Positions 3,684-6,520 of a DNA stretch of 64,000 nucleotides are shown in pieces. A program made the position numbers and the translations under genes. The stretch covers positions 1 through 64,000 of IMG/VR virus record IMGVR_UViG_3300025141_016375; one strand, written 5' to 3'. Source of the DNA: a virus. Position 1 is the stretch's first letter; the number at the start of each line of letters is the position of its first letter. The notes under the pieces were generated by a model. That model ran no database searches. It saw only the letters and a program-made list of their open reading frames with translations, and had not been told where the DNA came from.

Positions 3684-4526
3684 ATGATTGACCGTCACAA
3701 AGCATTAAATGAATTAAAAGAGGAACAGCGTCTACGTGAATTTGTTCGCAAAGGATTGAAGCTTTATTTTGAGCAGAAAAAAATTCAACGACCACAACAA
3801 ATAAACGAAGAGCAACGATTGCGCCAAAATATTCAAAAATTAGTGAGCGAAGTCAAAGAAGAAGAAAGATTAAGAAGCGTTGTGCGAGACCTTATTCGCG
3901 AAGTATCGAAAACAGACGTTCCCGTTGAACAGCCCCATGTTAACACTGGAATTAACGTGCTGGAAGATCTTTTAAGAAATATTATCCCTCAAGTTGAAAG
4001 TGGTTATAAAGCTTTAACAAGCGCAAAAGAACAACGGGTGTCTTTTAGAGCGCACATGCTTAACGCTGTAGAAAATACTCTTCTGCCTGCTGAAGTAGTT
4101 GCTGGAGTTCCACATGATGAAGAAGAAGTAGACGTTGTAGAGCTTGACGAACAAGACATCACAATGGATATTGGCGATGACGAAGACAAATTCATTCCCG
4201 TAAGAGATGTAGATCTAGAACCTGAAGAAGAAGTAGAAGTAGAAGAAGACGAGTTTAGTATTGAAGGTGAAGATTTAACAGGAAGAAACTTCGCTGCTAA
4301 TACCTGGAATAAAGTGGAAAAACAAACTCTTGATGCTTTCGAAAGCCTAGGCGATGAAGAAGACAGAGAGCTTTTTAAAGATTATCTTTTAACCAATCTT
4401 AAACTTTATTTTGATAAATTTGAAGAAGAACTTCAAGCTAACCTATCAGAACCTGAATCTCCAGATTACGAAATGGCCGCTACCACTGCTGTAGAAGAGC
4501 CTGTAGAAGACATCCCTGCCTTATAG
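3684..4526 (+). CDS. Acidic hypothetical protein with three N-terminal EE(Q/E)RLR repeats; possible internal head or scaffold protein
   Basis: Repeats EEQRLREFVR, EEQRLRQNIQ and EEERLRSVVR; the rest is very rich in E and D. Confidence 0.75.
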   Translation: MIDRHKALNELKEEQRLREFVRKGLKLYFEQKKIQRPQQINEEQRLRQNIQKLVSEVKEEERLRSVVRDLIREVSKTDVPVEQPHVNTGINVLEDLLRNIIPQVESGYKALTSAKEQRVSFRAHMLNAVENTLLPAEVVAGVPHDEEEVDVVELDEQDITMDIGDDEDKFIPVRDVDLEPEEEVEVEEDEFSIEGEDLTGRNFAANTWNKVEKQTLDAFESLGDEEDRELFKDYLLTNLKLYFDKFEEELQANLSEPESPDYEMAATTAVEEPVEDIPAL

Positions 4527-4546: not shown

Positions 4547-4555
4547 TGTTATAAT
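4547..4555 (+). promoter_or_regulatory. Sigma70-type extended -10 element (TGnTATAAT)
   Basis: TGTTATAAT in the intergenic gap upstream of the Fis-like gene and tmRNA. A small inverted repeat ATATGC-N6-GCATAT lies at 4574-4591. Confidence 0.5.
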
Positions 4556-4608: not shown

Positions 4609-5001
4609 ATGGTTTGGAAAAAACGAAAAAAGTACTATGGTTTATATGAAAAGTATAGTATAATAAATAAATATAAGAAAGAAGATAAGCTTAATAATAG
4701 TATATTAAATTATATTAACAATATTTCTTTAGAAGACCTTATAGCTATTAAGTTAGAATTATCAACAAGAATCTTAAGTGGTAAATATTATGGTTTACCC
4801 TTATGGCATTCAATTCGTCATTTAACTGCTGATGCAATCCTAAAAACAGCAGTGAGTGTTTGTAGAACGAAGAGTGAAGCTTCTAGGTTTTTAGGAATGG
4901 ATTATACAGATTTCCGAAAACTAATTAAAAAATATAAAACAGAATCATTTTTTGAAGATGAAAGGAATGGGGGCGAAACGGTTTCGACGGAGGACGAATA
5001 A
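4609..5001 (+). CDS. Fis-like helix-turn-helix DNA-binding protein
   Basis: AILKTAVSVCRTKSEASRFLGMDYTDFRKLIKKY follows the Fis/HTH_8 pattern (AAxxLGIxRxTLxxKLKKY). The last 10 codons and the stop lie inside the tmRNA. Confidence 0.7.
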   Translation: MVWKKRKKYYGLYEKYSIINKYKKEDKLNNSILNYINNISLEDLIAIKLELSTRILSGKYYGLPLWHSIRHLTADAILKTAVSVCRTKSEASRFLGMDYTDFRKLIKKYKTESFFEDERNGGETVSTEDE

Positions 5002-5348
5002 AATAGCGTGCAAAACTGTGTGGGTAACACAGTAAAAATACTCAAACTTTATAAATGCCAACGATAACGTTGAATTTGATTTTGCCTTAGCGGCTTAATC
5101 GGAAGTTGTTAATAGCTTTCTTAAAAAATATTAACCGTTTTCAATTTTCAGAAAAATTGGTGGTGCGCGCAGTAGGTATTTGGTCATTTTTATGACTATA
5201 TATTTTCGGCAGCCAGCGCCATGAGCTGGTGAATGGATTCCCTGACCTTGGTCGGGTGGTTGGTGCTTAGGCGGTTCATGCACCTACTTTTGTGAATGAC
5301 GGTATTTCTGCAGTTTTTCGGACCCGGGTTCGACTCCCGGCGCCTCCA
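4969..5348 (+). ncRNA. ssrA: tmRNA (one-piece); tag peptide ANDNVEFDFALAA at 5057-5098
   Basis: Acceptor stem GGGGGCG (4969-4975) pairs with CGCCTCC (5341-5347), with a G3:U wobble and discriminator A5348. Other elements: GGTTTCGAC at the 5' end, T-arm CCGGGTTCGACTCCCGG, PK1-like pairings ACTGTG/CACAGT and TGGGTA/TACTCA, and a tag ORF ending ALAA*. CCA is not encoded. Confidence 0.96.
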
Positions 5349-5363
5349 CTTAATTAACTTTCT

Positions 5364-5372
5364 ACTAATTAT
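5364..5372 (+). promoter_or_regulatory. Putative late promoter ACTAATTAT
   Basis: Motif between the tmRNA and the tubulin-like gene, followed by an AAGGAG RBS. Confidence 0.55.
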
Positions 5373-5395
5373 ATTATATTCCAAGGAGATTTGTT

Positions 5396-6520
5396 ATGAC
5401 AGATGACATTGAAAATGTAGAGGAAGGTGCACAGCCAGAAGAGACGCCAACAGCGGAAAGTTGGGATCTTCCGGACGATGCTCCATTTGGCCTAGACGAT
5501 TTTGATTTCGTAGAGGCTTATGACGACGAGCCGTCCGAGGACGACCGCATGCTAGGAGAAAACACCGCGCCCAGCGCAATTAATTGTGCATTTATCGGCG
5601 TCGGTGGCGGCGGCGGAAAGATGGCCAAAGCCTTTTTGGATTTAGGCTTTAATAAAACTCTTTTAATCAACACGACTGCAAAGGATCAGCCTACGGGTGT
5701 ACCTGCAGAAAATTTTCTTTTAATCCCCGGCGCCGATGGCGTAGCTAAAGACATTAAGCTCGGTAAAGAAGTTTTAGGCGATAATAGCACTTTTGTGGAA
5801 GATGCTTTACGCACACGAATTGGTAAAGTAGATTGGATTTTTGTATTAGCTGGTGGAGGCGGCGGCACCGGAAGTGCGAGTTCCGTGTTGCATGATTGTA
5901 TTACACGTTATTTAACCTCAATTGAGGCCGAAGGTAAAGTTATTTATATTACGAGTAAGCCCAGCGCGCAAGAACTTTTGAACCCTACTATTAAAAATAA
6001 TTGCCAGTCGCTTTTCAAAGACATCCATAATCATCCGCACATTGTCATTGACAATGAAAAACAACTCCAATTATTACGCGGTAAAGTGGGAATGTTGAAT
6101 ATGTATCCAGCCGCTAATAGAAATTTTGCAAAGTTATTAGCCCAAGTTTTAAAGCTGGCTAACGAGCCCTCTCCTATTCAGGCGTTTGATTCCAAGGATT
6201 TGGAAAGATGTTTGCGCACTGGTGGAAGAATGTTGTTAGGCAGTACAGTTGCACGAGATGTTTCTGCTCATGATTTAGGGGCAAATGTGTTTCAAGGGTG
6301 CCTCCGTTCTTCTCCGTGCCCTCCCCCTACGCGCAACCCAAAAACGGGAGTATTGCTTTTAATTGTGACACCTGAAATGGGAGATGATCCGCGAGTGAGT
6401 AATCGCTTAGAAGCGGCTTTTTCTTATGTGGGTGGTCGCACCGAAACATTATTTTCCGGGGTGTATGTTGCACCCCGTCTTCCTGGTTTAATTGCCTTAA
6501 CGCTTTTAGGCGGAATGTAG
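5396..6520 (+). CDS. Tubulin/FtsZ-superfamily GTPase with an acidic N-terminal extension
   Basis: FIGVGGGGGK (T1), LINT, GADGVAKD (T3), LAGGGGGTGSAS (T4 signature), IDNE, and AFDSKDL (T7-like). Confidence 0.9.
   Translation: MTDDIENVEEGAQPEETPTAESWDLPDDAPFGLDDFDFVEAYDDEPSEDDRMLGENTAPSAINCAFIGVGGGGGKMAKAFLDLGFNKTLLINTTAKDQPTGVPAENFLLIPGADGVAKDIKLGKEVLGDNSTFVEDALRTRIGKVDWIFVLAGGGGGTGSASSVLHDCITRYLTSIEAEGKVIYITSKPSAQELLNPTIKNNCQSLFKDIHNHPHIVIDNEKQLQLLRGKVGMLNMYPAANRNFAKLLAQVLKLANEPSPIQAFDSKDLERCLRTGGRMLLGSTVARDVSAHDLGANVFQGCLRSSPCPPPTRNPKTGVLLLIVTPEMGDDPRVSNRLEAAFSYVGGRTETLFSGVYVAPRLPGLIALTLLGGM

Follow-up and report, generated by a model that had tools for sequence, protein, structure and literature searches.

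A Fis-like gene reads into the tmRNA gene in a clade of uncultured marine phages

Functional genes whose stop codon should be destroyed when a stable RNA matures are rare in bacteria, at around 1 in 15,000 mRNAs, and for transfer-messenger RNA (tmRNA) only Carsonella has been described (PMC4131195). In Candidatus Carsonella ruddii, smpB extends into the 5′ end of ssrA (Mao et al. 2009, as cited in Hudson, Lau & Williams 2014, PMC4131195), an arrangement that half the strains show and that was otherwise absent from 2031 bacterial projects, and one that the authors termed 'an interesting feedback situation' (PMC4131195); the concept of feedback through such an overlap is already published for this gene pair. 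The same bacterial survey lists 250 upstream coding sequences (CDSs) that overlap valid t(m)RNA genes as potential sources of high-frequency non-stop mRNAs (Table 4, PMC4131195), with few evolutionary events behind each overlap. In Escherichia coli arfA, endonucleolytic cleavage upstream of the stop codon produces a non-stop mRNA, whose truncated functional product is tagged and degraded while trans-translation suffices (PMC3989581). Phage tmRNAs are also known, from the mycobacteriophage Bxz1 group and Bacillus phage G (PMC4131195) and from the OM43 phage Melnitz and pelagimyophages (PMC9004378), with the Melnitz tmRNA lying behind an early promoter with a structured leader, a glutamine riboswitch (PMC9004378). 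Here we describe a Fis-like gene that ends inside a one-piece phage tmRNA gene (ssrA) in a stretch of 64,000 nucleotides (nt), hereafter the window, that comprises positions 1 to 64,000 of the IMG/VR virus record IMGVR_UViG_3300025141_016375. Literature searches turned up no description of a phage CDS that overlaps a tmRNA, and the statement of an initial annotation of this DNA, that no such phage system had been described, appears right within the literature searched.

The Fis-like gene spans 130 codons on the + strand (4609–5001), and the tmRNA gene follows on the same strand at 4969–5349 in the ARAGORN prediction and at 4969–5351 in the match to Rfam family RF00023. Because 4609 plus 360 is 4969, codon 121 begins at G1 of the tmRNA. 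The overlap (4969–5001, + strand) comprises tmRNA nt 1–33, which supply the 5′ strand of the acceptor stem, the D-loop analogue and the start of helix P2 and at the same time encode the last ten residues of the protein, codons 121–130 (GGETVSTEDE), plus TAA. This TAA (4999–5001, tmRNA nt 31–33) is the sole stop of the 130-residue open reading frame (ORF). The initial annotation had placed G4969 at the start of codon 121 and the only stop at this TAA; both placements are correct, and the read-in is confirmed in frame and coordinates by the ORF call, ARAGORN and Rfam. As in Carsonella, an upstream CDS on the same strand has its only stop inside the mature RNA, here and in related loci, 21 of 81 in total.

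Related loci were fetched through the tubulin gene next to the tmRNA (70) and through the Fis-like protein (80), and for each locus compared (n = 81, including the window) both the true stop of the Fis-like gene and the tmRNA were located. The loci fall into three types. In the overlap type (21/81, with 16 distinct junctions), the stop lies at +30 or +36 inside the tmRNA, always in frame 0, with a read-in of 10–12 codons across the clade. The gap type (32/81) has the stop 38–460 nt before the tmRNA; in the sister clade described below, the distance is either 38–57 nt (short-gap loci) or 217–460 nt (long-gap loci). The remaining 28 loci have no tmRNA: 25 of them form one subclade in which the next gene overlaps by ATGA, and 3 carry a tRNA-Ala(TGC). 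At the protein level, 76 of the best 120 clusters at 90% identity end in G(G/D)E.(V/A)ST..., a tail that corresponds to the tmRNA 5′ end read in frame 0. Across these best 120 clusters, the spacer between the SFFE motif and G1 measures 2, 4 or 5 residues, and all variants keep frame 0.

Phylogeny points to a single origin of this arrangement. An IQ-TREE tree of 59 distinct core sequences, rooted at the midpoint, resolves two clades separated by a branch of 0.71 with support 100/99. The sister clade is wholly of the gap type except for the tRNA-Ala lineage L133, which is nested on a long, uncertain branch. In the other clade the overlap type is paraphyletic at the base, with the tmRNA-less subclade and the gap-type locus L117 nested inside it. 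Among 149 further representatives of the wider family at 50% identity, a tmRNA-derived tail occurs in only one fragment, which belongs to the same clade, and the other two frames of such a tail occur in none. Confinement of the tail to one clade of the wider family indicates that the overlap is derived, and the simplest history suggested by these sequences is one origin at the base of the clade, long retention and at least two losses. The alignment of homologous loci proposed in the initial annotation thus finds the read-in conserved, in one clade.

The members of the tmRNA-less subclade (L090:2501–3105 and 24 similar loci, L091–L110, L121, L123, L124 and L132) have no tmRNA within 2.5 kb; nested in the overlap clade, they end in a different acidic tail, ..EETEKEVL, and overlap the next gene by the ATGA noted above. 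The tRNA-Ala(TGC) of L133 (2879–2955; likewise in L135 and L136) lies 22 nt past the Fis-like stop, where relatives carry the alanine-accepting tmRNA.

Judged by its conservation, the tmRNA of the overlap clade is clearly functional. First, the window sequence matches RF00023 over the full model (1–374) and, at 105 bits, scores well over the gathering threshold of 47 (E = 2.6e-41). Second, the tag reading frame, ANDNVEFDFALAA plus stop (5057–5098, + strand; coding part 89–130 of the tmRNA gene in ARAGORN), is conserved in relatives as ANDNVE(F/Y)(D/N)YALAA, with the hydrophobic ..LAA ending of a degron. Third, RNAalifold places 68 pairs in an alignment of 14 overlap-type tmRNAs, 31 of them with compensatory double changes. 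Fourth, the RNA has a tRNA-Ala-like acceptor stem and a T-arm: nt 1–7 pair with the 3′ end, the G3:U pair is invariant in all 14 relatives, and so is the T-loop, GGTTCGACTCC. The window encodes no CCA at the tmRNA 3′ end (5340–5355, ..CCTCCAC and then TT); CCACCA is encoded in some overlap-type relatives (L072, L073, L083 and L084).

The 13-residue tag type ANDNxxxxYALAA (window, L152, L158, L206 and L231) is found in genomes of Alphaproteobacteria (Rhizobiales, Caulobacterales and Rhodobacterales), and the tag may be a clue to an alphaproteobacterial host. A search for the exact tag pattern of the window matched no bacterial genome. When 7 loci with this tag type were re-scanned with ARAGORN, a tmRNA was found in 4, all of them two-piece, or permuted, which would make the combination with a one-piece phage tmRNA an odd one. 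The window also holds a sub-threshold match to the Rfam model tmRNA_permuted at 4887–5098; the phage tmRNA itself is one-piece.

The protein-coding side of the overlap is also conserved. We found 184 homologues of 120–134 residues in marine metagenomes, and a profile search returned 457 representatives at 50% identity. When overlap-type genes are compared in pairs, dN/dS is 0.05–0.17, with one saturated pair at 0.34, and such low ratios indicate that the Fis-like gene is under purifying selection. Pairwise dS runs from 0.9 to more than 2, so the compared lineages are old enough for their synonymous sites to be saturated.

These data also decide whether the layout could be an artefact, through mis-assembly, an ORF that is spurious or a tmRNA that has decayed. 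Two features of the ORF would fit an artefact: its high AT content (20–30% GC) and its lack of a Shine–Dalgarno sequence. However, the layout is common to dozens of independent contigs from different samples, and is hence not a mis-assembly; dN/dS is well below 1; and the tmRNA combines extensive covariation with an invariant G3:U pair and a conserved tag. The comparative data refute an artefact, to which we assign almost no probability; from these alignments, the overlap is neither an assembly error nor a recent stop loss.

The name Fis-like, given in the initial annotation, holds at the level of fold and not at Pfam thresholds. An AlphaFold2 model of the window protein is helical (pLDDT 69.6), with a helix–turn–helix (HTH) at residues 88–109, and Foldseek matches it best to Fis of E. 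coli and Pseudomonas and to DNA-binding domains of the NtrC type (probability 0.99, target TM score 0.6–0.67). A comparison with VIA, made with this model of pLDDT 69.6, gave a middling Z of 7.0 over 50–52 residues against the Fis and NtrC4 DNA-binding domains (r.m.s.d. 1.8–2.1 Å), and model residues 61–112 align to Fis 46–98. At fold level the protein thus has the Fis-type C-terminal helical DNA-binding arrangement, helices B, C and D with the HTH. In Pfam, the window protein hits only HTH_29, below the cut-off (E = 0.013), and does not reach the curated cut-off of HTH_8 (PF02954), which appears sub-threshold in 5 of 28 family members (best E = 0.011). Profile and sequence searches of the Protein Data Bank gave no Fis match, and PHROGs gave no meaningful family for the gene. 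With matches in fold and only sub-threshold matches in sequence, 'Fis-like' is a statement about fold and not about family membership. The HTH (helices 88–95 and 99–109 of the model) is complete within residues 1–120, as the initial annotation had stated, and the tail, residues 119–130, has pLDDT below 50 and is predicted to be disordered.

We next consider how the two genes are transcribed. The extended −10-like element TGtTATAAT reported by the initial annotation is present at 4547–4555 (+ strand), upstream of both genes, and is a putative promoter of a gene–tmRNA co-transcript. It is absent from the list of a two-hexamer scan because its −35 is weak. In both clades most members have a TATAAT or TATCAT box, often preceded by TG, 25–45 nt ahead of the start codon; a sigma70-like promoter upstream of the gene is therefore upheld as a conserved element, with a function that we infer.

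A second promoter, dedicated to the tmRNA, is evident in the sister clade. Its short-gap loci have TTGACA-N17-TATAnT between the stop and the tmRNA with 9–12 of 12 matches, and 10 of 15 distinct short-gap junctions reach 10–12 of 12, the −35 sometimes falling in the last codons of the gene. The −10 usually ends around 19–22 nt before G1, and a short leader that is itself conserved (tctttaaaatat or gatctttgatat) comes next. The same TTGACA-N17-TATAnT promoter stands right past the stop in at least 7 of 9 aligned long-gap loci. In the overlap clade, the best sigma70 pair within the 45 nt before G1 is at background only (8–9 of 12 matches, at inconsistent positions); the SFFE(N/D) codons directly abut GGGG, and the promoter, leader and stop of the sister loci are all gone. 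The loss of the dedicated sigma70 promoter makes a co-transcript likely, and no terminator separates the gene from the tmRNA.

Most long-gap loci have, in addition, a conserved structured leader of around 170 nt between their TTGACA-N17-TATAAT promoter and the tmRNA (L127:2870–3128, L111:700–956, L112:1100–1394, L116, L126, L138, L148, L149 and L150), which does not occur in the window. RNAalifold supports it with 25 pairs, 16 of which show compensatory double changes, and a comparison with Rfam gave no match at E ≤ 10. From its sequence, it is a candidate for a new leader, riboswitch or ribozyme co-transcribed with a phage tmRNA, to be compared with the glutamine riboswitch ahead of the Melnitz tmRNA (PMC9004378).

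A promoter inside the gene would alter this picture. The tmRNA could come mainly from an internal promoter in the last ~150 nt of the gene, for instance a late-type box, in which case the overlap would matter little for tmRNA supply and only rarer full-length transcripts would be affected. Promoters within coding sequence are common in phages. The candidate box is ACTAATTA (4920–4927, + strand), which encodes part of K-L-I-K and lies 41 nt before G1. The corresponding motif, RCTAWTTA, is strongly strand-biased in the window, with 14 of 15 matches on the + strand, and the CTA-ATT codon choice is retained in 5 of 5 distinct sequences of the window's subclade. ACTAATTA also recurs at 5364–5371, 24 nt before the start of the tubulin gene. 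However, the 15 matches equal the 14.3 expected by chance, the box is kept in the window's subclade only and is absent from other overlap-type loci, and all sigma70 pairs stay at background level. Nor do the KKY codons supply a conserved internal −10 (TATAAn), as L072–L077 have TTCGAT there. We regard an internal promoter as the main source of the tmRNA as unlikely.

On the likeliest reading, the overlap is a clade-wide product of genome compaction in which gene and RNA are co-transcribed, RNase P releases the tmRNA and the consequences for the gene are a tolerated by-product. In an ancestor, a deletion of ~40–60 nt would have taken the stop of the Fis-like gene, the sigma70-type promoter of the tmRNA and the short leader, fusing the gene in frame to tmRNA nt 1. 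From then on, the tmRNA would have been transcribed from the promoter upstream of the gene (4547–4555), within the gene's mRNA, and host RNase P would release it at G4969. RNase P requires the acceptor stem. The 3′ strand of that stem is transcribed ~350 nt after the stop, so transcription-coupled ribosomes can terminate normally: those close behind the polymerase would finish at UAA 4999–5001 before the 3′ half of the stem exists, and their product would be the full-length protein, its acidic, disordered tail set by the RNA sequence. On a co-transcript, textbook tmRNA processing would give a stop-less message of 120 codons. Once the tmRNA had been excised by RNase P, the enzyme that makes tmRNA 5′ ends (PMC3985003), ribosomes reaching the end of codon 120 would stall and be rescued, presumably through trans-translation with tagging. 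With the host or the phage tmRNA, the rescued product would read ...FEDERN-AANDNVEFDFALAA. The data show the overlap and its conservation, that both genes function, that the dedicated promoter was lost and that the tail evolves with the RNA, whereas co-transcription, RNase P cleavage and the non-stop products are inferred steps of this scheme; if co-transcription holds, the trade-off between translation and maturation on each transcript is real. The overlap may lower the yield of the regulator, as a tolerated by-product and not a demonstrated circuit.

Several points weigh against this scheme of compaction and co-transcription. At the RNA level, the only match is a 93-nt contig of a seawater metatranscriptome run, identical to 4978–5070 in the inner tmRNA and weak as evidence; contigs of the same run do not cover 4609–4968 and, as they show neither ends nor levels, are uninformative on co-transcription. 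A non-sigma70 internal promoter is a candidate alternative source, given the conservation of ACTAATTA in the window's subclade. Frame 0 is kept by all junction variants (spacers of 2, 4 and 5 residues; stops at +30, +36 and others), and this retention could hint at selection on the read-in as opposed to pure neutrality. Finally, whether the change was a deletion or an insertion is judged from outgroup comparison and the midpoint root.

Whether the read-in itself is selected can be approached through the evolution of the tail, which follows the RNA. Tail residue 122 alternates between G and D exactly with the covarying acceptor pairs 5:502 (G-C/A-U) and 6:501 (C-G/U-A). In L072–L077 the stop has moved from +30 to +36 together with compensatory changes in helix P2 (pairs 32–37), and the in-frame TAA at +30 pre-exists in non-overlapped tmRNAs (for example, L112, L129 and L139). 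In lineages that lost the tmRNA, another acidic tail took over. These points, like the predicted disorder of the tail, speak against selection, whereas the retention of frame 0 points to some constraint: its tail is acidic, as are the family's native tails, and basic tails would come from the other frames. By a rough count, the junction offers 1–2 sites for a one-step stop gain, too few to argue for or against selection on the read-in.

Against this background we weighed an adaptive feedback resembling ArfA or Carsonella, in which the level of a truncated, HTH-intact regulator would depend on trans-translation capacity and the regulator would control the gene–tmRNA unit, as a homeostat or timer. 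Its logic has precedents in arfA (PMC3989581) and Carsonella smpB–ssrA (PMC4131195). The overlap persisted while synonymous sites saturated, frame 0 survives several in-frame indels at the junction, the HTH lies wholly upstream of the cleavage site, and the gene family adjoins a tmRNA in 53 of 81 loci or a tRNA-Ala in 3. Against it, the overlap arose once and was lost at least twice, among others in an entire subclade where the tmRNA is gone and the gene remains, now with another acidic tail; RNA covariation carries the tail and the stop along with it; one-step stop-gain sites are so few that persistence needs no selection; and binding of the regulator to its own promoter, tagging and activity of the truncated form are assumptions of the feedback model. 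We consider such a feedback distinctly improbable. A selected sensor, in which tmRNA excision makes the non-stop message and the truncated Fis-like protein accumulates only when rescue is exhausted and then boosts its own gene–tmRNA unit, seems to us more doubtful still; if true, a virus would have turned RNase P processing into an ArfA-like homeostat of ribosome rescue. The evidence leans against the read-in being a dedicated device without being decisive, and the regulatory feedback or timer raised in the initial annotation is a hypothesis. Activation of stable-RNA promoters by the phage Fis-like protein is likewise only an analogy, and the position of the gene beside tmRNA and tRNA genes is only suggestive of such a role.

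The source record is a 73.9-kb IMG/VR viral contig, estimated to be 41% complete, that encodes a baseplate wedge gene and PhoH. Deposited phage genomes queried with the locus DNA and with the protein gave no match and thus no cultured relative; the phages of the overlap clade are uncultured, marine and myovirus-like. Upstream of the Fis-like gene lies a gene for an acidic protein of 280 residues and unknown function (3684..4526, + strand), a syntenic anchor in relatives. Directly downstream of the tmRNA is the tubulin/FtsZ-like GTPase gene (5396–6520, + strand; Pfam Tubulin, E = 2.7e-05), which has its own Shine–Dalgarno sequence, and a scan of the + strand between the two (5350–5395) found no terminator. 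SmpB was not found in the 74-kb record, from which, at only ~41% completeness, no conclusion is possible.

Some relatives show other upstream neighbours at the tmRNA. In L021 (5363–5557), L015, L023 and L024, which lack the Fis-like gene, a small gene for an Hc1 histone H1-like protein (Pfam E = 7.6e-08) ends 3–10 nt before G1, placing a second nucleoid-type DNA-binding gene in the slot of the Fis-like gene, and in L016 an unidentified gene of 155 residues ends 13 nt before the tmRNA. Different genes ending 3–13 nt before the tmRNA indicate that tight packing against the upstream gene, without room for a promoter, is common in this group.

The overlap clade provides a widespread, evolutionarily stable example, in abundant marine phages, of a gene whose stop lies within a stable RNA, and the sister lineages, which retain a separate promoter and stop, supply built-in controls. 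Questions made testable include how RNase P processing competes with translation on one transcript, to what extent products are tagged and whether phages tune tmRNA supply in this way. If compaction is all that is at work, the clade shows that a conserved regulator tolerates a tail of 10–12 residues dictated by an RNA.

Among described systems, Carsonella smpB–ssrA is closest: there, too, a same-strand upstream CDS runs into the tmRNA, and maturation is expected to yield a non-stop mRNA. The C-terminal extension of Carsonella smpB is described as apparently random, set by the extent of the intrusion. The overlapping gene in that endosymbiont is SmpB, whereas the present one is a phage gene for a DNA-binding protein of Fis fold, and the phage overlap is clade-wide with saturated dS and accompanied by comparative evidence of a lost tmRNA promoter. 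The other surveyed overlaps come from bacteria, in most cases with a tRNA as the partner (for example, FtsW/RodA with tRNA-Ile in Helicobacter), and include no phage case. In arfA, RNase III cuts a hairpin, the gene encodes a rescue factor and experiments have proven the regulation, whereas the phage case would use RNase P at a tmRNA and is predicted from sequence. E. coli Fis and the HTH_8 domains of Fis and NtrC are the best structural matches to the phage protein and resemble it in the C-terminal motif ...RFLGxxxxxFxKxxKKY; compared with E. coli Fis, the phage protein has ~40 extra N-terminal residues and a C-terminal tail. Known phage tmRNAs resemble this one as complete ssrA genes on large lytic phages, but those of the Melnitz type are two-piece, with no overlapping upstream CDS reported, whereas the tmRNA here is one-piece with an alphaproteobacterial-type tag. 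What is new in these phages is the Fis-fold partner gene, the clade-wide stable overlap and the comparative series that documents loss of the dedicated promoter.

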